A program made the translations under genes and the position numbers. DNA of 22,887 nt from a virus (Duplodnaviria > Heunggongvirae > Uroviricota > Caudoviricetes), in IMG/VR virus record IMGVR_UViG_2541047738_000004, one strand, 5' to 3'. The notes under the pieces were generated by a model that did not search any database, had not been told where the DNA came from, and saw only the letters and a program-made list of their open reading frames with translations. Below, piece after piece: positions 5,008 through 18,826 of the stretch (its first letter is position 1; each line of letters starts with the position of its first letter).

Positions 5008-5140
5008 TTTTTGGGACTCCTGGCTGATTAAGTATGTCGATAAGGCGTTTCCATCCGTCACGTAATTTACGGGTGATTCGTTCAAGTAAAGATTCGGAAG
5101 GGCAGCCAGCAACAGGCCACCCTGCAATGGCATATTGCAT
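4976..5140 (-). CDS. cIII: cIII, FtsH inhibitor (54 aa; below the ORF-track size cutoff)
   Basis: Hand translation of the minus strand gives [54 protein letters not shown], matching lambda cIII; overlaps the kil start as in lambda. Confidence 0.85.
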   Translation of the reverse strand: MQYAIAGWPVAGCPSESLLERITRKLRDGWKRLIDILNQPGVPKNGSNTYGYPD

Positions 5141-5212
5141 GGTGTGCTCCTTATTTATACATAACGAAAAACGCCTCGAGTGAAGCGTTATTGGTATGCG
5201 GTAACGCCGCGC

Positions 5213-7190: not shown

Positions 7191-8090
7191 TTATTTGATT
7201 ATTTCTTTTATAAAGACTTCTTTCGGTTGGTATTTTTTATCTGATGATTTGAGCTGGTACGTTATTGTTATATCAGCACGTACAGAAAATTTACCTGCAA
7301 AATCTGATGGGTTTACGTTGGGGCCAAGAACCATATTTACTCTTCGATCTATTAATCCAGGGATAACAGCAGCCCAACCTTTCTCTGGATTGTCGAGGTC
7401 TAATGCACGGATTTCAACATCAACATCAAAATGATCCTGAGTATATGACTCTGGTGTGAAGACAACTTCAGTTGGGGCTTTTTTAATGGTTTCAGCGGGA
7501 ATGGTCACTGTACCACCCCCTGTACCTATGACCATCGTAGATCCTTCGTCTGCCCTAGCTGGGGCAAGCGTCTTAATGGAACTTTTGGCAAGAGTCTTCT
7601 TATTGGTTACCGTGCTTTCTATGATTGCTTGAAGACGGTCAGGTGAAATATTAGCCTCACCGGCACCAATATTGATGATTGTATTGTTATTTGCTTCAAA
7701 GTGGGAGGTGTTGCTTGGAGCCATAGCCTTAGTTGCTAGAACTAAGCCATATCCAACCAGACCAATAACAACAGCACCAACGAGAGCGTTTCTCATTTTC
7801 CCATTTCCGATCTTTGCATGAGCGCCAGCAAGAAACTTGTCCATTTCTTCTTGGCTACCAAAGAGGAGTTTAATAACAATATCTTCATAAAGGCTTCCTG
7901 CTTCTAATCGCGCAACATGCACCGATATATCAAGGATATTAGCCCCTGTCAGTTCCTGCAAAACACCTTCTGATTGTTTTGCGATGGCCTCCCACCCTTG
8001 AAGGGAGGTAATCACATCTTTGATGCTTACAGGTTCTTTAGTTGAATAATATATGTTTTCGGTAAAGGTTAAAGATAATTCTTGGGACAT
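7191..8090 (-). CDS. Unrecognised 299-aa single-pass membrane protein in the rexAB-equivalent slot; candidate superinfection-exclusion or abortive-infection protein
   Basis: Long ORF with ATG and GAGGG RBS and a central hydrophobic helix (ALVGAVVIGLVGYGLVLATKAM). AT-rich compared with flanking genes, directly downstream of cI on the same strand, followed by its own terminator. No family recognised. Confidence 0.75.
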   Translation of the reverse strand: MSQELSLTFTENIYYSTKEPVSIKDVITSLQGWEAIAKQSEGVLQELTGANILDISVHVARLEAGSLYEDIVIKLLFGSQEEMDKFLAGAHAKIGNGKMRNALVGAVVIGLVGYGLVLATKAMAPSNTSHFEANNNTIINIGAGEANISPDRLQAIIESTVTNKKTLAKSSIKTLAPARADEGSTMVIGTGGGTVTIPAETIKKAPTEVVFTPESYTQDHFDVDVEIRALDLDNPEKGWAAVIPGLIDRRVNMVLGPNVNPSDFAGKFSVRADITITYQLKSSDKKYQPKEVFIKEIIK

Positions 8091-8219: not shown

Positions 8220-8927
8220 TCATGAACTTTTCAGCCATTCCCTGGCCTCGATGTCATCTAGGTGGCGAGATTGCTTCAGAATACCAGCTACATACTCCAC
8301 CTTTGCTACTTGATGATAAGGCAACGTTATTGGCCTGTGGTCTTGGTTGATGCTTGTAAATTGGTATTCTCCGTCTCTGTCATAGCCAAGAACCTTGATC
8401 ATGTTGTGCCCTTCAATGGTTCTGACAAACACCTCATCACCTGGGAATACTTTGGTGTTAGGCTCAATGAGTACATATTCTCCTGATTTTATTCTGGGCC
8501 ACATGCTGTCTCCTTTTACACGAAGACCAAAGGCATCTGGATCATCGCTATAAATCTTGAGCCACCCATCGCGCTCTTCGGTCATCTCGATGGCACCATC
8601 AACACCAAGAATTGCCTCACCAACCACGCGCACTAACCCTTTTTTTAATTTGCCAACAATTGAAAAAGTATCTTCATCATTCGCTCCATTTAACGAAGTG
8701 CCGTGCTGAAGCCAAACAACATCAACGTTTAGAAATTTCGCAAGCGCATTCATTTTTTCCTGGCGTGGTAAAGACTCAGCATTAAACCATTTGCTAACGC
8801 CTTTGGACGAAAGAGAAAGGGCACGGGCTATGGCCATTCCCCTACCATGTTCATCAAGACCAGCTTCTTTACAGGCTTGCGCTAGCCGCTGGGCGAATTC
8901 TTTGCGCACTTTTTCATTCTGAACCAT
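8220..8927 (-). CDS. cI: CI-type prophage repressor (HTH N-domain plus S24 LexA-like autocleavage domain)
   Basis: 235 aa with an N-terminal HTH region and C-terminal GDSMWP…K signature of S24 peptidases. Divergent from cro, with no leader or SD before the ATG (leaderless, as for lambda pRM). Confidence 0.9.
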   Translation of the reverse strand: MVQNEKVRKEFAQRLAQACKEAGLDEHGRGMAIARALSLSSKGVSKWFNAESLPRQEKMNALAKFLNVDVVWLQHGTSLNGANDEDTFSIVGKLKKGLVRVVGEAILGVDGAIEMTEERDGWLKIYSDDPDAFGLRVKGDSMWPRIKSGEYVLIEPNTKVFPGDEVFVRTIEGHNMIKVLGYDRDGEYQFTSINQDHRPITLPYHQVAKVEYVAGILKQSRHLDDIEAREWLKSS

Positions 8928-9005
8928 GAGTACGATACTAAAGCACTTGCAAAAACTTTCAGTTCAACCATAATGCGTACTGAAAGTACGAAAAAGGACA
9001 TTCCT
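8928..9005. promoter_or_regulatory. Immunity-region operator/promoter block (OR, pRM, pR)
   Basis: 78-bp divergent intergenic region. It holds a perfect palindrome CGTACTGAAAGTACG (8976..8990) and a related inverted element ACTTTCAGT (8954..8964), overlapping the likely pR. Confidence 0.6.
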
Positions 9006-9233
9006 ATGCAAAATCTTGATGAGCCGATTAAAGGTGTCGGCATCCCTGAAGTTGCGAAGGCTTGTGGAGTTAGCGAAAGGGCTGTCTATAAGTGGCTCAA
9101 AAACGGCTTCCTCCCTAAGACTGAGTTTTTTGGGAAAACGAAATACGCATCAAAAATCGAAGAGATTTCTGGTGGCAAATATCAAGCAAGCGAAATGCTT
9201 GAAATAAGCAAAAAGAACCTTCTGGCAGCATAA
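9006..9233 (+). CDS. cro: Cro-like HTH repressor (75 aa)
   Basis: HTH (VAKACGVSERAVYKWLKNG) and RBS aaagga 8 nt upstream of ATG 9006. The earlier in-frame ATG at 8973 sits inside the operator and has no SD. Confidence 0.78.
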   Translation: MQNLDEPIKGVGIPEVAKACGVSERAVYKWLKNGFLPKTEFFGKTKYASKIEEISGGKYQASEMLEISKKNLLAA

Positions 9234-9240
9234 GTAACAC

Positions 9241-9275
9241 CGCTCTTTATCAATCTGCACCGCCGACAACGCGGT
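9241..9275 (+). promoter_or_regulatory. nutR (boxA 9241..9249 CGCTCTTTA; boxB 9259..9275)
   Basis: Consensus boxA followed by hairpin ACCGCCGACAACGCGGT (P22-type boxB), between cro and cII. Confidence 0.65.
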
Positions 9276-9339
9276 AACTAATTAAGAACTCATCGAAAGA
9301 TGCGTATTAGTGATTATTTACCTATGGAAATAGTAAGAA

Positions 9340-9639
9340 ATGGAACAAACAAATTACAGCAAACTATCACAGCGCGACGTTGATCGCGCAGAAACAGATT
9401 TACTTATCAACCTGTCAACGCTTACTCAGCGCGGTCTGGCAAAGATGATTGGCTGTCATGAATCGAAGATAAGCAGAACAGACTGGAGGTTTATAGCTTC
9501 GGTCTTGTGTGCTTTTGGCATGGCATCAGACATCAGTCCGATTAGCAGAGCTTTTAAGTATGCGCTTGATGAAATCACCAATAAAAAACGCCCGGTGTGC
9601 AAGACCGAGCGTTCTGAACAAATCCAGATGGAGTTCTGA
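9340..9639 (+). CDS. cII: CII transcriptional activator
   Basis: 99 aa; C-terminus …NKKRP…TERSEQIQMEF matches lambda CII. Confidence 0.85.
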   Translation: MEQTNYSKLSQRDVDRAETDLLINLSTLTQRGLAKMIGCHESKISRTDWRFIASVLCAFGMASDISPISRAFKYALDEITNKKRPVCKTERSEQIQMEF

Positions 9640-9672
9640 GGTCATTACTGGATCTATCAACAGGAGTCATTA
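9586..9672 (-). ncRNA. oop: OOP antisense RNA (approximate ends) with tO terminator at 9583..9611
   Basis: Minus-strand hairpin CGCUCGG-loop-CCGGGCG followed by UUUUUU overlapping the cII 3' end. The cII/O junction sequence matches lambda, where oop is encoded. Confidence 0.45.
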
Positions 9673-10571
9673 TGACAAATACAGCAAAAATACTCAACTT
9701 CGGCAGAGGTAACTTTGCCGGACAGGAGCGTAATGTGGCAGATCTCGATGATGGTTACGCCAGACTATCAAATATGCTGCTTGAGGCTTATTCGGGCGCA
9801 GATCTGACCAAGCGACAGTTTAAAGTGCTGCTTGCCATTCTGCGTAAAACCTATGGGTGGAATAAACCAATGGACAGAATCACCGATTCTCAACTTAGCG
9901 AGATTACAAAGTTACCTGTCAAACGGTGCAATGAAGCCAAGTTAGAACTCGTCAGAATGAATATTATCAAGCAGCAAGGCGGCATGTTTGGACCAAACAA
10001 AAACATCTCAGAATGGTGCATCCCTCAAAACGAGGGAAAATCCCCTAAAACGAGGGATAAAACATCCCTCAAATTGGGGGATTGCTATCCCTCAAAACAG
10101 GGGGACACAAAAGACACTATTACAAAAGAAAAAAGAAAAGATTATTCGTCCGAGAATTCTGGCGAATCCTCTGACCAGCCAGAAAACGATCTTTCTGTGG
10201 TTAAACCGGATGCTGCAATTCAGAGCGGCAGTAAGTGGGGAACAGCAGAAGACCTGACCGCCGCAGAGTGGATGTTTGACATGGTGAAGACCATCGCGCC
10301 ATCAGCCAGAAAACCGAATTTTGCTGGGTGGGCTAACGATATCCGCCTGATGCGTGAACGTGACGGACGTAACCACCGCGATATGTGTGTGCTTTTCCGC
10401 TGGGCCTGCCAGGACAACTTCTGGTCCGGTAACGTGCTGAGTCCGGCCAAACTCCGCGACAAGTGGACCCAGCTCGAAATCAACCGTAACAAGCAACAGG
10501 CTGGCGTGACAGCCGGAAAACCAAAACTCGACCTGACAAACACTGACTGGATTTACGGGGTGGATCTATGA
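9672..10571 (+). CDS. O: Replication initiator O
   Basis: 299 aa matching lambda O (MTNTAKILNFGRGNFAGQERNVADLDDGYARL…), with iterons inside the gene. Confidence 0.97.
   Translation: MTNTAKILNFGRGNFAGQERNVADLDDGYARLSNMLLEAYSGADLTKRQFKVLLAILRKTYGWNKPMDRITDSQLSEITKLPVKRCNEAKLELVRMNIIKQQGGMFGPNKNISEWCIPQNEGKSPKTRDKTSLKLGDCYPSKQGDTKDTITKEKRKDYSSENSGESSDQPENDLSVVKPDAAIQSGSKWGTAEDLTAAEWMFDMVKTIAPSARKPNFAGWANDIRLMRERDGRNHRDMCVLFRWACQDNFWSGNVLSPAKLRDKWTQLEINRNKQQAGVTAGKPKLDLTNTDWIYGVDL
10020..10150 (+). repeat. ori-lambda: four iterons (ATCCCTCAAAACGAGGGA-like) plus AT-rich unwinding region
   Basis: Four ~18-bp direct repeats at about 10020..10037, 10041..10057, 10063..10080 and 10087..10105, followed by A-rich sequence 10106..10150. 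Confidence 0.88.
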
Positions 10572-13111: not shown

Positions 13112-13298
13112 CCCATCTCAATCCCTTCAATACCTGAAAGGAAGCATAGAGCGGGCTTCAATGTGCACAGAGTGGATTCTATCTAGGTTTAGCGCATACA
13201 GAAGATTGCCGGTAAAGGGCATGCCAAGCAAGTCGATGCTGCATATGCAAAAGAATGCGCGCGGGAAGGTATGGCGAGAACGCAGGTTATCTGGCTGA
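13104..13298 (+). CDS. NinF-like protein (N-terminal ~18 aa match lambda NinF, then divergent)
   Basis: [18 protein letters not shown]… resembles the lambda NinF N-terminus; the remainder lacks the recalled Cys-rich NinF C-terminus. RBS caggagg. Confidence 0.5.
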
Positions 13299-13317
13299 AA
13301 GAGGGGGTAATTAAGGC

Positions 13318-13680
13318 GTGAATACTTACCACATCACACTACCCTGGCCTCCGAGCAATAATCGCTATTATCGCCATAATCGCGGGCGCACGCACGTCAG
13401 CGCAGAGGGGCAGGCATACCGCGATAACGTCGCCCGAATCATTAAAAACGCAATGCTGGATATCGGCCTGGCGATGCCTGTGAAAATCCGCATTGAGTGC
13501 CACATGCCGGATCGCCGTCGCCGTGACCTGGATAATCTGCAAAAAGCCGCTTTTGACGCACTCACCAAAGCAGGTTTCTGGCTGGATGATGCTCAGGTCG
13601 TTGATTACCGCGTTGTGAAGATGCCTGTTACCAAAGGTGGGAGGCTGGAATTGACCATCACCGAAATGGGGAATGAATGA
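13318..13680 (+). CDS. rusA: RusA Holliday-junction resolvase (GTG start)
   Basis: 120 aa matching RusA of DLP12/phage 82 ([35 protein letters not shown]…). Confidence 0.9.
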
Positions 13681-13902: not shown

Positions 13903-14280
13903 ATGCGTGATATTCAGATGGTTCTTGAGCGTTGGGGAGCGTGGGCGGCTAATAATCATGAAGATGTGACCTGGTCGTCCATTGCCGCCGGTTTTAAGGG
14001 ATTAATTCCTTCAAAAGTAAAATCTCGCCCGCAATGTTGTGACGATGACGCGATGATCATTTGCGGGTGCATGGCCCGTCTGAAAAATAACAACAGCGAT
14101 TTGCATGATTTGTTAGTGGACTATTATGTCGGCGGCATGACTTTTATGGCGCTTGCGCGTAAGCATGGTAGATCTGATTGTTGGATTGGCAGGATGCTCC
14201 AAAAAGCTGAGGGCGTAGTGGAGGGCATGCTGATGGTGTTGGATCTCAGATTGGAGATGGATGCTGATTGTTTGAGATAA
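13903..14280 (+). CDS. Q-like late antiterminator (DLP12 QuuD / phage 82 Q family)
   Basis: 125 aa from ATG 13903 ([26 protein letters not shown]…) resembling DLP12 QuuD as recalled; followed by pR'/tR'-like elements. Confidence 0.72.
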
Positions 14281-14309
14281 TTAAAGGAAAAGTTGCTGTC
14301 TGGTTATCA

Positions 14310-14336
14310 TTAGACTAATGTTTCAAATGTTAGAAT
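14310..14336 (+). promoter_or_regulatory. Candidate late promoter pR' (-35 TTAGAC, -10 TAGAAT) with qut region
   Basis: Sigma-70-like hexamers just downstream of Q and about 45 nt upstream of a strong terminator; the spacer is short (~15 bp), so placement is tentative. Confidence 0.3.
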
Positions 14337-14378
14337 CGCAACGTAGTTATGATCATATAACAGCTTGTTCCCTGATTT

Positions 14379-14409
14379 AGCCAGCCTCCCCAAAGGCTGG
14401 TTTTTTTTC
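14379..14409 (+). terminator. tR'-like rho-independent terminator
   Basis: Hairpin CCAGCC-tccccaaa-GGCTGG followed by a run of 8 T. Confidence 0.65.
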
Positions 14410-14436
14410 TAATAAGTATCAATCCGGTTAGGTATT

Positions 14437-14961
14437 TTATTGTTTGACCCATAATAGTTCATTGACATTGAATCCCAATTTTTGAGCAGTACGCACATAG
14501 TCTGCTTTTACATTATCTGGAATAGTTGGAGTCCGTGCCAGAATCCATAGGTATTCTCTGTTCGGACCACTGACAAGAGCATATTTATACTCATCATCCA
14601 GTTTGATTACATTATAGCCACCATAGAAGGGGCCAAAAAACGAAACCTTCAACGCTGCAGTTGTATTATCTCCTGTAAAGTATGCTTTACCTTCGCTCTC
14701 GCTCCATTTGTTTTTCGTTGGGTCATATCCACGATTAAGTACACTAATCCCTCCGTCGTTCCGTTTCCCATAAGTGGCGCTGACCTGTTCCAGACCACGT
14801 TCAAATCGGTTCTCAAGCCGAGCTATTTCATACCATTTTCCGAGGTAGCGGTTGGTGTCAAAATTTGTAATCGGCTGCACACCTTTAGGTGGTGTCGGGG
14901 CCTTACATGCTATCAGAGTGAAAGAGAGTGCAATGCCAGTCAACACAGGCCATAACTTCAT
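14437..14961 (-). CDS. blc: Blc-like outer-membrane lipoprotein (bacterial lipocalin)
   Basis: 174 aa with a lipoprotein signal peptide and lipobox (…FTLIACKAPTPP…) and strong similarity to E. coli Blc as recalled (…RYLGKWYEIARLENRFERGLE…KVSFFGPFYGGYNVI…YLWILARTPT…). Confidence 0.85.
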   Translation of the reverse strand: MKLWPVLTGIALSFTLIACKAPTPPKGVQPITNFDTNRYLGKWYEIARLENRFERGLEQVSATYGKRNDGGISVLNRGYDPTKNKWSESEGKAYFTGDNTTAALKVSFFGPFYGGYNVIKLDDEYKYALVSGPNREYLWILARTPTIPDNVKADYVRTAQKLGFNVNELLWVKQ

Positions 14962-15153
14962 AATATATCCTGTACTTTTGATAGTTGAGAGTAAGTATTA
15001 AAGATAGATGATTACTACCGATCACTTAAAGAACTTTCCTACTATATTAGGAATAGTCCATAACAAAAAAATTGTCAGTGATGACGGCAGAAAGGCAGTT
15101 TAGGTCGTGTACTACACTGTTAACCTGTTAATGAATTAGTCAAGGGGTAGGCA

Positions 15154-16113
15154 ATGATAAAAAAACCTGTCGTTGGGATCAGTGGTTGTTTGGCCGGTTC
15201 TTCTGTCCGTTTTGATGGTGGTCACAAAAGAGCTAGCTTTTTAATGGACAAATTACTGGAATGGGTAACATTCAAACCAGTATGTCCGGAAATGGCTATA
15301 GGGCTTCCAGTTCCGCGTCCTGCTCTACGTCTTGTTCGCTCGGCGCAAGGAAATATACGGATGTGTTTCAGCCACGACCAGAATGAGGATGTTACAGAGA
15401 AAATGACAGAGTTTAGTCGTTCTTATCTTGACAAATTAAAGGATGTATCGGGATTTGTGGTTTGTGCAAAATCTCCTAGCTGTGGTATGGAACGCGTGCG
15501 TGTATATGATGAAAATGGTAATCGTGGTCGTAAAGATGGAGTGGGACTATTTACGAGCACGTTGATGGAAAGGTTTTCCTGGCTACCGGTTGAAGAGGAT
15601 GGGCGACTACATGATCCAGTGCTTCGTGAAAACTTTGTTGAAAGAGTATTTGCTTTACATGAGCTCAATCATCTTTATAAAGCGAAATTATCAAGAAGGG
15701 AATTATTAGCTTTTCATAGCCGTTATAAGCTTCAGTTGTTGGCGCATAGCCAGGCCGGTTATAAAGAGATGGGGCCATTTGTGGCTGCAATACATGAGTG
15801 GGCAGACCTTGAATCATACTTTGAGGTGTATCGTGAGAAGCTGATGGCGATTCTCAGAAAACCTGCATCACGTAAAAATCACACGAATGTGCTGATGCAT
15901 ATACAGGGATATTTTAGTAACTGCTTAAATACACGTCAGCGTAAAGAGTTGAGCGATGTTATACTTAACTATCGAGCTGGCACGCTACCTCTTCTTGCGC
16001 CATTAACTTTGCTGAAGCATTACTTGGCAGAGTATCCTGATGATTATTTGCTTATACAGAATTACTTCCACCCCTATCCTGATGAACTGGCTCTAAGACT
16101 CTTGGTGAACTAG
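15154..16113 (+). CDS. DUF523/DUF1722 fusion protein (TudS thiouracil-desulfurase-like N-domain, YbgA-like C-domain)
   Basis: 319 aa; the N-terminus VGISGCLAG…VRFDGGHK resembles the Cys-containing DUF523/TudS signature, and the C-terminal half resembles the YbgA/DUF1722 helical domain. Family assignment is from memory. Confidence 0.75.
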   Translation: MIKKPVVGISGCLAGSSVRFDGGHKRASFLMDKLLEWVTFKPVCPEMAIGLPVPRPALRLVRSAQGNIRMCFSHDQNEDVTEKMTEFSRSYLDKLKDVSGFVVCAKSPSCGMERVRVYDENGNRGRKDGVGLFTSTLMERFSWLPVEEDGRLHDPVLRENFVERVFALHELNHLYKAKLSRRELLAFHSRYKLQLLAHSQAGYKEMGPFVAAIHEWADLESYFEVYREKLMAILRKPASRKNHTNVLMHIQGYFSNCLNTRQRKELSDVILNYRAGTLPLLAPLTLLKHYLAEYPDDYLLIQNYFHPYPDELALRLLVN

Positions 16114-16422: not shown

Positions 16423-17163
16423 GTGGATGGTATGCCATGCATATGTTCTATCATTTTGGTTTTGAACTCGTTTGATATCCGGCTTGGTAAAGAAAAAATC
16501 TCTCTAAAAAAAGGAAGTGTTGTTGCTATAGAATACAATTTAAAAGTTTTCTTTTCTTCAAATAAAGATAATATAATGATCGTGGATATTGAAGAGAAAA
16601 CAGTTAATGACTTCTTTAAAAACAATACACTCTCACCTTTTTCTGTAAGAAGATTTTATTCAGCATACTTGATAGTAAACTGTACAGACTATTCATTGTT
16701 AAAGAACTTGATAGGTTGCTTGAATTGTGATGGTGAAACTACGGCTGTAGTTAAAAATTCAATATTATTTGCATGTCTTGCTATTTTATCCTCGGAAAAA
16801 ATGTTTCAGAGTTTTTTGTTTGGGTGTCTTAATAGTTTAGGAAGCAAAGTTAAGGCTATTATTCACTCGGACATATCTGCAGCATGGAGACTTTGTGATA
16901 TTTCTTCAAGACTATGTCTGAGTGAAAGTTTGTTAAAAAGAAAACTAAAACACGAAGGCTTATCATTTAGCAAATTAATTCTTGAAGAACGAATGGTGAT
17001 GGCTGAAAGGTTATTAAGCTACAATTTCTATCCTGTTGGGAAAGTTGCTAAAATATGTGGTTATGAAAGCGCGTCATATTTTATAAGTGTTTTCAGAAGA
17101 TATTTTGGTGTTCCCCCCCATGAATATTCATCAAGATTTTTTTTAGAAAAAGGCAAGATGTAA
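16423..17163 (+). CDS. AraC-family transcriptional regulator (Rns/AggR/GadX/AppY-like); start uncertain (GTG 16423 or ATG 16432)
   Basis: C-terminal AraC HTH (…VGKVAKICGYESASYFISVFRRYFGVPPHEY…); markedly AT-rich coding sequence preceded by ~300 bp of AT-rich non-coding DNA. Confidence 0.75.
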   Translation: MDGMPCICSIILVLNSFDIRLGKEKISLKKGSVVAIEYNLKVFFSSNKDNIMIVDIEEKTVNDFFKNNTLSPFSVRRFYSAYLIVNCTDYSLLKNLIGCLNCDGETTAVVKNSILFACLAILSSEKMFQSFLFGCLNSLGSKVKAIIHSDISAAWRLCDISSRLCLSESLLKRKLKHEGLSFSKLILEERMVMAERLLSYNFYPVGKVAKICGYESASYFISVFRRYFGVPPHEYSSRFFLEKGKM

Positions 17164-17225
17164 CGTGATGCGTTTTGATGATTTTGTAATTTTCATATTT
17201 GATGATTATATGATGCTTTCAGCTA

Positions 17226-17252
17226 CGCCAGAATAATCGCTGGCGTTTTTCT
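17226..17252 (+). terminator. Putative rho-independent terminator after the AraC-family gene
   Basis: Hairpin CGCCAG-aataatcg-CTGGCG followed by TTTTTCTTTT. Confidence 0.45.
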
Positions 17253-17330
17253 TTTCTAATGTAACTTCTGTATCTTTCCCTCTTTCATTCCAAACCGTGT
17301 ACACCATCCGTTATTCGCGGAGGTGAGGCT

Positions 17331-17546
17331 ATGAAATCCATGGACAAGTTAACAACGGGCATTGCCTACGGCACCTCTGCAGGCAGTGCTGGCTACTGGT
17401 TTTTACAGTGGCTTGATCAGGTCAGTCCGTCACAGTGGGCGGCGATTGGAGTGCTTGGAAGCCTTGTGTTGGGTTTTCTCACTTATCTGACAAACCTTTA
17501 TTTCAAGATTAAAGAAGATAAGCGTAAGGCTGCGAGAGGTGAATAA
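17331..17546 (+). CDS. S: Phage-21-type class II holin / pinholin (dual start Met1/Met4)
   Basis: 71 aa ([71 protein letters not shown]) near-identical to S21 as recalled; RBS ggaggtgagg. Confidence 0.92.
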
Positions 17547-18532: not shown

Positions 18533-18826
18533 TTATTGTGAGCAATAGACACGCGCTTCCAGCGGAGTATAAATGCCTAAAGTAATAAAACCGAGCAATC
18601 CATTTACGAATGTTTGCTGGGTTTCTGTTTTAACAACATTTTCTGCGCCGCCACAAATTTTGGCTGCATCAACAGTTTTCTCCTGTCCAATTCCCGAAAC
18701 GAAGAAGTGATGGGTGATGGTTTCCTTTGGTGTTACTGCTGTCGGTTTGTTTCCAACAGTAAACGTCTGTTGAGCACATCCTGTAATAAGCATTGCCAGA
18801 GCGGCAGAAAACAACATTTTTTTCAT
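18533..18826 (-). CDS. bor: Bor lipoprotein (serum-resistance protein)
   Basis: 97 aa from internal ATG (MKKMLFSAALAMLITGCAQQTFTVGNKPTAV…) matching lambda Bor; the ORF-track N-terminal extension is rejected. Confidence 0.9.
   Translation of the reverse strand: MKKMLFSAALAMLITGCAQQTFTVGNKPTAVTPKETITHHFFVSGIGQEKTVDAAKICGGAENVVKTETQQTFVNGLLGFITLGIYTPLEARVYCSQ

Follow-up and report, generated by a model that had tools for sequence, protein, structure and literature searches.

A second Blc-type lipocalin gene paired with rudS between the Q and holin genes of a lambdoid prophage

The window, which is the whole 22,887-nucleotide stretch of DNA analysed, belongs to a lambdoid prophage integrated at icd, and it carries a lipocalin gene between the antiterminator gene Q and the holin gene. 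This gene is antisense to Q, rudS/ybgA, an AraC-like gene and the lysis genes; the first-pass annotation had placed it on the strand opposite to tR' and the late operon, and the positions of Q at 13903-14280 (+) and rudS at 15154-16113 (+) relative to the lipocalin gene (-) agree with this. The features of the region are:

13903-14280, + strand: antiterminator Q (QuuD-like, Q21/PF06530 family; Pfam Phage_antitermQ, 2.5e-51)
14252-14281, + strand: rival PR' candidate, TGGAGA-18-GATAAT (promoter scan, 9/12), overlapping the Q stop codon
14293-14321, + strand: candidate PR', TTGCTG, 17-bp spacer, TAATGT (8/12, read from the sequence)
14379-14410, + strand: intrinsic terminator (terminator scan), stem 14379-14402, then U8
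14437-14961, - strand: gene for a Blc-type lipocalin lipoprotein, ATG start, 174 aa
14905-14961, - strand: signal peptide, residues 1-19 (read from the translation)
14905-14916, - strand: lipobox L16-I-A-C19, with Lys20 at +2 (from the translation)
14962-15153: divergent spacer from the lipocalin gene to rudS, 192 bp
14994-14999, - strand: candidate -10 element AATACT, in the divergent spacer
15036-15053: near-palindrome TTCCTAaTATAgTAGGAA, occurring once where 0.01 occurrences are expected
15041-15046, - strand: candidate -10 element TATAGT, in the divergent spacer
15154-16113, + strand: rudS ('YbgA family', TudS/DUF523 + DUF1722; Pfam 2-thiour_desulf and DUF1722), tRNA 4-thiouridine desulfidase
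16432-17163, + strand: AraC-family (YdeO/GadX-like) regulator gene (Pfam HTH_18 and HTH_AraC)
17225-17256, + strand: second intrinsic terminator (-11.3 kcal/mol, z -3.17), between the AraC-like gene and the holin gene
17331-17546, + strand: class II holin, the first late gene and right edge of the cargo slot (strain ST3 annotation)
18533-18826, - strand: the bor copy of the prophage

The prophage also has sieB.

The lipocalin ORF is preceded by a Shine-Dalgarno sequence, AGGA, at 14968-14971. Residues 35-174 match Pfam Lipocalin_2 (PF08212; E 2.2e-43, profile positions 2-146 of 146), and the protein passes the NCBIfam model for 'outer membrane lipoprotein Blc' (NF007786) over its full length with 315.5 bits, the cut-off for this subfamily being 267 bits. 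The solved structures of E. coli Blc (3MBT, 1QWD and 2ACO) are matched with an E value of 2.6e-69. As read from the translation, the N-terminus, MKLWPVLTGIALSFTLIAC followed by KA, is a type II signal peptide with the lipobox L-I-A-C. The lipobox consensus is [LVI][ASTVI][GAS]C, and Asp at position +2 is the rule for retention in the inner membrane. Because the +2 residue is Lys, and not the retention signal Asp, the precursor is predicted to be sorted to the outer membrane. The gene had been described beforehand as encoding a Blc-like outer-membrane lipoprotein with a lipobox, and the profile matches, the structure matches and the LIAC motif all support that description.

The phage lipocalin and E. 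coli Blc are equal in length, both have a lipobox and they align without gaps at 60% protein and 68% DNA identity, but the residue at +2 is Ser in Blc and Lys in the phage protein, and Blc is a paralogue encoded elsewhere. The closest relatives of the phage lipocalin are chromosomal proteins with 74-82% identity that form a second enterobacterial lipocalin clade. The Blc orthologues of Salmonella, Citrobacter and Buttiauxella are, in turn, 76-77% identical to E. coli Blc and 60-61% identical to the phage lipocalin. Orthology with E. coli blc is ruled out by the 60% identity to Blc, compared with 74-82% to the other clade, and by the different locus. The relationship is also visible at the N-terminus, where the MerR-linked chromosomal lipocalins described below have AC-K(S/A)PTPP, as does the phage lipocalin, with members of the clade reading LVAC-KSPTPP. 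The possibility that a host blc had been misassembled into the prophage, raised with the original annotation, is likewise ruled out by the 60% protein and 68% DNA identity and by the presence of both copies in single closed genomes. Host blc and the phage lipocalin gene occur together in complete genomes such as that of strain ST3, and the same arrangement recurs in 11 phage genomes and 84 loci.

When the 19 positions listed as ligand contacts of Blc (PMC8177097) are compared, 18 are identical in the phage lipocalin, and the only change, K77R, is conservative. Arg52, at the mouth of the pocket (PMC7026729), is also retained. Gly84 of Blc is Asn in the phage lipocalin; a G84E variant of Blc has been studied (PMC7026729). 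Since the pocket differs so little from that of E. coli Blc, the phage lipocalin is expected to bind ligands of the same kind, although the role of Blc itself is unsettled, with lysophospholipid and heme/porphyrin both proposed (PMC7026729, PMC8177097). Blc binds hematoporphyrin at 0.14 nM (PMC8177097).

The lipocalin gene and rudS diverge from the 192-bp spacer, and this distance is exactly 192 bp in all 82 of the loci that extend across rudS. The first-pass annotation had held that the lipocalin gene must be driven by its own promoter in this region. The divergent 192-bp region is real, but scanning the - strand of 14962-15153 for sigma-70 promoters gave no match of at least 9/12, and the candidates read by hand on that strand (AATACT, TATAGT and TATCTT) are all weak; no convincing sigma-E or MerR-type spacing for a lipocalin promoter was found in the spacer. 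A phylogenetic footprint of the spacer, drawn from 41 distinct alleles, contains an invariant block at 15040-15058. A box similar to the near-palindrome is present at an equal distance upstream of the chromosomal relatives in a MAFFT alignment, although it is short and the similarity may be due to chance. In the half of the spacer nearest the lipocalin gene, 12.5% of sites are variable, compared with 17.7% at codon position 3 (p = 0.30) and with 24% in the half nearest rudS (p = 0.06). This reduced variability is suggestive only and not significant, and the promoter of the lipocalin gene is putative.

The neighbour genes differ in how well they have been kept. The rudS gene is intact in 81 of 82 loci and, in the window, its product is 100% identical to gp66 of phage 1H12, which was assayed as the tRNA s4U desulfidase RudS_vir, with the three cluster cysteines Cys12, Cys44 and Cys110 (PMC11417400). 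The AraC-like gene, in contrast, is broken, by truncation or interruption, in 14 of 79 loci; it is very AT-rich (GC 0.26-0.32), its product matches the NCBIfam YdeO and GadX models, both below cut-off, and it is a third, looser member of the cargo block. Literature searches on prophage AraC-like regulators and strain LF82 returned nothing bearing on the lipocalin gene. Together with the preceding Q and the following holin, these genes form an arrangement that is already represented among isolated phages. 'Lipocalin Blc' of Escherichia phage 1H12 (gp65, YP_009909556; PHROG 2809) is a 100% identical protein, and 1H12 and ten other Lambda_ev/Lambda_2E9-type phages (Jouyvirus) have the same Q, rudS/gp66, AraC-like gene and holin, with the lipocalin gene antisense. 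There is no detectable difference between the window and the 1H12-type element, of which the window is a prophage copy.

In related genomes, the slot between Q and the holin gene is occupied by a porin gene, an AB5 toxin pair, a methyltransferase gene or the lipocalin block, and similarity among these alleles stops at the Q stop codon and resumes ~15-30 bp before the holin ATG. The lipocalin gene and rudS have a GC content of 0.39-0.44, compared with 0.47-0.54 for the flanks. Examined as a possible moron, the lipocalin gene thus has both a position in a variable cargo slot between neighbour genes and a base composition unlike that of its flanks. Two known phage genes resemble it. The nmpC/lc gene of DLP12 and PA-2-type prophages occupies the same Q-holin slot on the opposite strand and has an outer-membrane product, but this product is a porin rather than a lipoprotein and the non-coding flanks are unrelated from the Q stop codon onward. 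Lambda bor/iss, like the lipocalin gene, is carried by a lambdoid phage on the strand opposite to the late operon and encodes a small outer-membrane lipoprotein. It is a serum-resistance gene located downstream of Rz and is believed to be active in the lysogen. It differs from the lipocalin gene in the fold encoded (Lambda_Bor, PF06291), in its slot, which follows Rz whereas that of the lipocalin gene is between Q and S, and in having a known phenotype. That a phage-borne Blc-like lipocalin is a lambda moron is already known: blc was listed as a moron in >50%, but not all, of 19 lambdas from the infant gut, whose noted morons are mostly membrane proteins (Mathieu et al. 2020, PMC6969025). That paper goes no further than naming blc and is silent on its origin, partner gene, regulation and function (PMC6969025). 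What is new here is the second lipocalin clade, the fixed pairing with rudS, the MerR-linked chromosomal counterpart and the purifying selection.

A copy of the lipocalin gene is present in ~19-21% of complete E. coli genomes, and an identical lipocalin, annotated 'Lipocalin Blc', is present in 11 isolated lambda-like phages. ETEC B7A and ST69 isolates are among the carriers of the block. The gene was found in three different prophage backbones and is full-length, with no stop codons, in all 84 loci. Its alleles diverge by 5% in DNA with a dN/dS of 0.06-0.19, and the lipocalin is under purifying selection. The gene has remained intact even in decayed Qin-like and DLP12-like prophages, the Qin-like elements being full of IS elements and pseudogenes. 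These observations make a role in the lysogen, as had been suggested by analogy with bor, plausible, although recent spread, instead of a benefit to the lysogen, could account for the purifying selection. They also bear on the idea that the lipocalin gene is a neutral hitch-hiker, silent or irrelevant in the lysogen and kept by linkage to the Q-lysis region. That idea draws on the absence of a - strand promoter of at least 9/12, on the p value of 0.30 for spacer conservation and on the decay of the adjoining AraC-like gene, but we consider it improbable given the low dN/dS at 5% DNA divergence, the three backbones and the fact that 0 of 84 lipocalin copies are disrupted while an AraC-like neighbour with the same history is often broken.

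Our preferred explanation, in which we have good though not full confidence, is that the lipocalin gene is a lysogenic-conversion ('moron') gene encoding a phage-borne second Blc-type outer-membrane lipocalin. A lipoprotein of this type might instead serve the phage. Cor and Llp are outer-membrane lipoproteins of other phages that act as superinfection-exclusion or receptor-masking factors, and the lipocalin could be imagined to act similarly, since it is an outer-membrane lipoprotein encoded by a temperate phage and most of the morons noted in these lambdas are membrane proteins (PMC6969025). This is very improbable: the ligand pocket is conserved with Blc and with non-phage chromosomal lipocalins, its nearest relatives, found in several genera, are encoded by ordinary chromosomal genes, and the gene is intact in defective prophages unable to make phage. 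A PADLOC search with the lipocalin, RudS, the AraC-like protein and the cI-adjacent ORF returned no defence match, and sieB is already in the prophage.

The chromosomal relatives point to the source of the block. In Leclercia, Enterobacter nematophilus, Huaxiibacter, Buttiauxella and Raoultella, a lipocalin relative is located 0.9-1.5 kb from a rudS homologue with 71-74% identity, in the same divergent orientation in all five genera, and a MerR/MlrA-like gene separates the two in four of these genera. A transthyretin-like gene is sometimes also present between them, whereas the phage locus lacks the regulator. In Cedecea and Klebsiella variicola, the lipocalin-MerR pair adjoins an operon with SDR, amine-oxidase, DUF1365, CFA-synthase-like and DUF2878 genes, and the Lelliottia relatives adjoin ars and acetoin genes, without rudS. 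The promoters of the chromosomal lipocalin genes look MerR-type (TTGAAT, 20 bp, TACACT), a feature that the phage copy lacks. When the phage spacer was compared with the chromosomal loci by BLAST, only the coding parts aligned and no donor was identified, and a search of the phage locus for a remnant of the MerR gene found none. Most likely, the lipocalin gene and rudS were acquired jointly from a chromosomal locus of an enterobacterium, with a MerR/MlrA-type regulator between them that was lost in the phage. Both rudS and this lipocalin clade are absent from the chromosome of E. coli itself and are thus contributed by the prophage.

This origin invites a more specific proposal, which refines the moron explanation and does not exclude it, namely that the lipocalin and RudS are one module against near-UV/blue-light (photo-oxidative) stress, derived from a MerR-controlled light-response locus. 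RudS would remove photosensitive 4-thiouridine from tRNA, and the lipocalin would handle envelope damage or sequester photosensitising porphyrins. The constant 192 bp in 82 of 82 loci, the intact rudS in 81 of 82 and the MerR/MlrA-linked neighbourhood in several genera, including the lipocalin-MerR pair of Cedecea and Klebsiella variicola, are all consistent with such a module, as is a light-induced lipocalin lipoprotein in Chryseobacterium lacus. RudS genes are members of light-responsive operons under MerR/LitR control, and overexpressed RudS lessens the growth delay caused by UVA (PMC11417400); the affinity of Blc for hematoporphyrin (PMC8177097) fits the same scheme. The basis of the proposal is, however, gene neighbourhood, and the Lelliottia relatives have no rudS. 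The phage copy has neither the MerR gene nor the MerR-type operators of the chromosomal genes, the gut is dark, and RudS_vir was the weaker on tRNA of the enzymes assayed (PMC11417400). We therefore hold this proposal only tentatively, and give the same low weight to its historical form, in which the lipocalin is no moron on its own but half of a lipocalin-RudS module that lambdoid phages lifted, without the regulator, from a MerR/MlrA-type locus probably responsive to light or photo-oxidative stress. Both products would then act on one stress, RudS on photosensitive tRNA and the lipocalin on photo-damaged envelope lipids or photosensitising porphyrins.

How the lipocalin gene, as a moron, would relate to late transcription depends on the region after Q. 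Against solved structures, the Q protein matches Q21 distantly (2e-8), and it is annotated as antiterminator Q in strain ST3. The terminator at 14379-14410 folds on the + strand with -14.2 kcal/mol (z -2.96) and ends 27 bp from the lipocalin stop codon; among alleles its stem is conserved and is followed by a U-run of 6-8 bases. The hairpin also stands at the 3' end of the lipocalin transcript, where it has -13.3 kcal/mol and is followed by CUAAAUC, without a U tract. Neither Rfam nor ARAGORN found a tRNA or other known RNA in the interval from Q to the lipocalin gene; in Stx phages, a tRNA is located between Q and the downstream genes. In the candidate PR' at 14293-14321, the -35 element is invariant across alleles and the -10 element is TAAYRT. 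Of the 41 other distinct allele sequences aligned, 39 have TGGAAT in place of the pause-like TAGAAT at 14331-14336. The terminator is most likely tR', an assignment made from position alone because the layout is the standard Q-PR'-tR' one, and late transcription would oppose the lipocalin gene only if this assignment is right. The first-pass annotation had put the lipocalin gene immediately downstream of tR'; a strong + strand terminator after Q is indeed there, but its identity as tR' is less secure, with PR' candidates of 8-9/12.

It is possible, but rather unlikely, that the terminator at 14379-14410 instead ends the early-right/Q transcript or the lipocalin message, that the Q-dependent promoter is elsewhere, for example just before the holin gene, and that late transcription never crosses the lipocalin gene. 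The weakness of the PR' candidates beside Q, the TGGAAT found in most alleles in place of TAGAAT and the presence of a second terminator just upstream of the holin gene would fit this arrangement, as would the porin allele, in which the segment after Q is entirely different and yet the Q proteins are 87% identical. In known Q systems, however, PR', a pause element and a terminator lie directly after Q (preprint 10.1101/651190). The stretch before the holin gene has no better promoter, and RNA initiated there would meet the 17225 terminator after ~35 nt, which is too short for a Q-loading pause; this terminator is, moreover, well placed to end the AraC-like gene. A tR' before the holin gene was judged less likely than 14379-14410 on account of the missing better promoter and the ~35 nt RNA.

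With 14379-14410 as tR' and the lipocalin gene as a moron, a scheme for its expression can be outlined. The gene would be transcribed leftward from the 192-bp spacer that it has in common with rudS, independently of the phage programme, and the precursor would be exported, lipidated at Cys19 and sent to the outer membrane, where the pocket may bind hydrophobic envelope molecules such as lysophospholipids, fatty acids and possibly porphyrins. In the lysogen, the short PR' transcript would end at the hairpin 27 bp past the lipocalin stop codon, shielding the gene. On induction, Q-modified polymerase would pass the terminator, meet the lipocalin gene head-on, and then transcribe rudS and the AraC-like gene as sense RNA on its way to the lysis genes.

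A Blc-like lipocalin as coliphage cargo is ordinary, being already present in GenBank annotations, in PHROGs and in the 2020 paper. About 1 in 5 complete E. coli genomes nevertheless have an extra envelope lipoprotein of this kind, and as lysophospholipid levels and inflammation in the gut have been linked to variants of host Blc (PMC7026729), a second lipocalin copy could confound work on Blc variants in the gut. The pairing with rudS and the MerR-linked origin provide a testable lead on the function of this lipocalin clade, and the pairing also offers a lead on why a gut phage carries a tRNA de-thiolating enzyme. If the two genes do form a module against photo-oxidative stress, phages would have spread the lipocalin and rudS to about one-fifth of E. 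coli.

The ORF at 14437..14961 on the - strand starts with ATG, six bases downstream of an AGGA, and encodes 174 residues, of which residues 35-174 match Pfam Lipocalin_2 (E 2.2e-43). Its score against the NCBIfam model 'outer membrane lipoprotein Blc' is 315.5 bits (cut-off 267 bits), the solved structures of E. coli Blc (3MBT, 1QWD and 2ACO) are matched at ~1e-68 and the alignment with E. coli Blc is gapless with 60% identity. In the translated N-terminus, MKLWPVLTGIALSFTLIAC followed by KAPTPP, a basic start leads into a hydrophobic core and an L-I-A-C lipobox, with Lys at +2. The +2 rule for lipoprotein sorting is established and, because the +2 residue is Lys, this lipoprotein is predicted to reach the outer membrane. 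All these lines agree with the first-pass annotation of a Blc-like lipoprotein gene with a lipobox.

The best relatives outside coliphages, with 74-82% identity, are encoded in Cedecea, Leclercia, Enterobacter nematophilus, Huaxiibacter, Buttiauxella, Raoultella, Kosakonia, Klebsiella variicola, K. huaxiensis, Pantoea and Lelliottia. Two types are encoded by Buttiauxella izardii: a phage-type lipocalin, with 79% identity to the window protein, and a true orthologue of Blc, with 60% identity to the window protein and 76% to E. coli Blc. The co-occurrence of both types, with these identities, places the phage gene by sequence in a second enterobacterial clade, marked by AC-K(S/A)PTPP, and not with host blc, of which it is a paralogue. 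Blc has 19 residues lining its ligand pocket (PMC8177097) and 18 of these are unchanged in the phage lipocalin, the sole change being K77R. Arg52, at the pocket entrance (PMC7026729), is also retained; Gly84 of Blc is replaced by Asn. With the pocket so conserved and Arg52 kept, the ligand class is likely the same as that of Blc. For Blc this class is debated, the proposals being lysophospholipids and fatty acids on one side and heme or porphyrins on the other (PMC7026729, PMC8177097).

A sensitive DNA search of 5426 complete E. coli genomes found host blc, with ~68% DNA identity to the phage gene, in 5372 and the phage-type gene, at ≥90% identity, in ~1040-1130. That a host blc had been misassembled into the prophage, a possibility raised in the first-pass annotation, is ruled out by this low DNA identity, by the presence of both genes in strain ST3, and by the same neighbours in isolated phages. 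An identical protein with the same neighbours, labelled 'Lipocalin Blc', is encoded by 11 isolated lambda-like phages including 1H12 (Jouyvirus), a further 130 IMG/VR contigs carry the gene and the protein has its own PHROG family, 2809. That a blc-type lipocalin is a lambda moron is already published, as a name in a list, since Mathieu et al. 2020 counted 'blc, a bacterial lipocalin' as one of the morons found in over half of their 19 lambdas (PMC6969025). In the literature searched, no other paper brought lipocalin, lambdoid, moron and prophage together. Separately, ~305 places on E. coli plasmids carry a blc-like gene with roughly 67-68% DNA identity to the phage gene, and so at least two mobile routes bring lipocalin genes into E. 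coli. Q, the lipocalin gene (97%) and the beginning of rudS of this E. coli prophage also appear on a 2.1-kb contig (L013, JARKOR010000135.1) from a metagenome bin named 'Candidatus Nanosynbacter', into which the contig was almost certainly misbinned.

A lambdoid prophage adjoining icd in E. coli ST3 matches the window at 100% identity, and the genes around the lipocalin gene are ordered as follows.

Local gene order, Q to iss/bor
5′ of Q, + strand, rusA and ylcG
13903-14280, + strand, Q
14437..14961, - strand, lipocalin gene, between Q and rudS
15154-16113, + strand, 'YbgA family' gene (rudS)
16432-17163, + strand, AraC-family gene
17331-17546, + strand, holin gene, then endolysin and spanin genes
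18533-18826, - strand, iss/bor homologue, after the spanin gene (Lambda_Bor, 1e-30)

No other gene between Q and the lysis genes runs leftward, confirming the proposal that the lipocalin gene is antisense to the direction of Q and late transcription. With the iss/bor homologue, this prophage has two outer-membrane lipoprotein genes that run antisense to its late genes. In related prophages, the Q-holin slot holds other cargo, namely an ADP-ribosyltransferase with a subtilase-like B subunit, a methyltransferase, or the ompC/nmpC-type porin of DLP12-type elements which, like the lipocalin gene, is on the opposite strand. In alignments, similarity ends at the Q stop codon and resumes roughly 15-30 bp 5′ of the holin ATG. 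The GC content is 0.39-0.44 for the lipocalin gene and rudS, 0.26-0.32 for the AraC-like gene and 0.47-0.54 for flanking phage genes. The cargo block is present in three prophage backbones, one of which, a lambda-like element at icd, is represented by the window and 1H12. The others are DLP12-like (L004) and, in B7A and PK13, Qin-like with abundant IS elements and pseudogenes. ARAGORN and Rfam searches found no tRNA and no Rfam family in the lipocalin gene and terminator region.

Elsewhere in the window, a DUF1364 (ybcO-like) remnant lies directly 5′ of rusA (13232-13321, + strand), annotated in ST3 as an N-terminally truncated pseudogene, and a full-length lambda cIII thermoregulator RNA element is present at 5095-5153 on the - strand (Rfam RF01804, 88.5 bits). 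A 299-aa ORF (7191-8090, - strand) adjoins the cI-like repressor gene, at the position of lambda rexAB. It falls in PHROG 4506, a family of unknown function, searches of Pfam, NCBIfam and PADLOC gave no match, and it is a candidate lysogen-expressed gene.

Terminator scanning and folding identified a + strand intrinsic terminator, with a 9-bp stem (14379-14402, -14.2 kcal/mol) followed by eight U, that ends 27 bp from the lipocalin stop codon. The stem is conserved among alleles; the U-run (14403-14410) has eight bases in the window and seven or six in most other alleles. On the - strand, the hairpin (-13.3 kcal/mol) is followed by CUAAAUC in place of a U tract, and so does not form a canonical terminator for lipocalin transcripts. 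Q is a PF06530-family protein that distantly matches the Q21 structure, and in this family the cassette order is Q, PR′, a sigma-dependent pause element, terminator and late genes (10.1101/651190). A candidate PR′, TTGCTG-17-TAATGT (14293-14321), is located 3′ of the Q stop codon and has a -35 that is invariant among alleles; a second candidate promoter, TGGAGA-18-GATAAT (14252-14281), overlaps the stop codon. Two -10-like hexamers precede the hairpin, TATGAT at 14348 and TAGAAT at 14331, the latter reading TGGAAT in 39 of 41 other distinct aligned allele sequences. No promoter better than the candidates near Q was found in the stretch 5′ of the holin gene, and the terminator at 17225 is well positioned to end the AraC-like gene. 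The lipocalin gene was described as lying just past tR′; its position beyond a terminator that follows Q holds, and 14379-14410 is probably tR′. If so, transcription from PR′ would stop short of the lipocalin gene in the lysogen and, as originally proposed, run head-on through it after induction, an arrangement like that of lambda bor and DLP12 nmpC. The DLP12-type prophage of E. coli H14 (L003) has an intact ompC/nmpC-type porin gene on the opposite strand in the Q-holin slot (L003 1907-3752), and a promoter-plus-terminator-like unit directly 5′ of essD that raises the question of where PR′ is located in this allele.

Because iss, the nearest upstream leftward gene, is 3.5 kb away, the 192-bp spacer at 14962-15153, proposed in the first-pass annotation, is the only reasonable place for the putative lipocalin promoter. 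A sigma-70 scan of the - strand of this spacer gave no match of at least 9/12. There are two weak - strand candidate -10 sequences, AATACT (14994-14999), with a predicted leader of ~25 nt, and TATAGT (15041-15046). The latter falls in TTCCTAaTATAgTAGGAA (15036-15053), a near-palindrome with a single occurrence in the window versus 0.01 expected. A similar box, CAATATACTACGAAT, is present at an equal distance 5′ of the chromosomal lipocalin relatives. In these relatives (L014-L018, about 8900-10000 in each), the lipocalin gene is preceded by a MerR-style TTGAAT and TACACT, separated by 20 bp with a GTGCA...TGCAC dyad, and rudS or a transthyretin-like gene by a conserved TTGGACAAA...TTTGTGTAAGTTTTA element. 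Neither is present in the phage copy. Among 41 distinct alleles, variable sites constitute 12.5% of the lipocalin-proximal half of the spacer versus 17.7% of third codon positions (p = 0.30), and 24% of the rudS-proximal half versus that 12.5% (p = 0.06).

None of the 84 loci examined has a shortened lipocalin ORF, and dN/dS for this gene is 0.06-0.19 between alleles with 5% DNA divergence. Among the 82 loci that extend across rudS, 81 have this gene intact, and in every one the start codons of the pair are 192 bp apart. Truncation or interruption of the AraC-like gene was seen in 14 of 79. Given these counts and the constant spacing, the lipocalin gene and rudS form a conserved unit that excludes the AraC-like gene. 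The AraC-family protein resembles YdeO and GadX, below family cut-offs, and has 52%-identical relatives in lambdoid phages mEp332, PhiR70_1 and ev099.

The rudS product (319 aa) has a TudS (2-thiouracil desulfurase) domain plus DUF1722 and is 100% identical to 1H12 gp66, 'RudS_vir', whose tRNA 4-thiouridine desulfidase activity has been assayed (Jamontas et al. 2024, PMC11417400). As RudS is absent from E. coli (PMC11417400), prophage rudS supplies the host with a tRNA 'eraser'. RudS genes tend towards MerR/LitR-controlled, light-responsive operons, and no lipocalin is mentioned in that report (PMC11417400). A rudS homologue whose product is 71-74% identical to phage RudS lies 0.9-1.5 kb from the chromosomal lipocalin relative in Leclercia, E. 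nematophilus, Huaxiibacter, Buttiauxella and Raoultella, and the two genes diverge as in the phage. A MerR/MlrA-like regulator gene lies between them in four of these five genera, sometimes with a transthyretin-like gene. In Cedecea and K. variicola, the same lipocalin-MerR pair is next to an operon encoding SnoaL, SDR, amine oxidase, DUF1365, CFA-synthase-like and DUF2878 proteins; the Lelliottia locus is linked to neither rudS nor such an operon. The simplest reading of these sequences is that the phage block would be a captured piece of a chromosomal lipocalin-MerR-rudS locus from which the regulator was deleted, with no donor nameable because only coding DNA aligns, at 70-75% identity.

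The first-pass annotation was therefore right in the identity, position and orientation of the lipocalin gene, and reasonable but unproven in its promoter, tR′ and lysogen expression. It was incomplete in that the gene is a blc paralogue and half of a fixed lipocalin-rudS pair of apparently chromosomal origin. This pairing and its MerR-linked ancestry appear unreported in the literature searched, and constitute a modestly interesting, testable lead.
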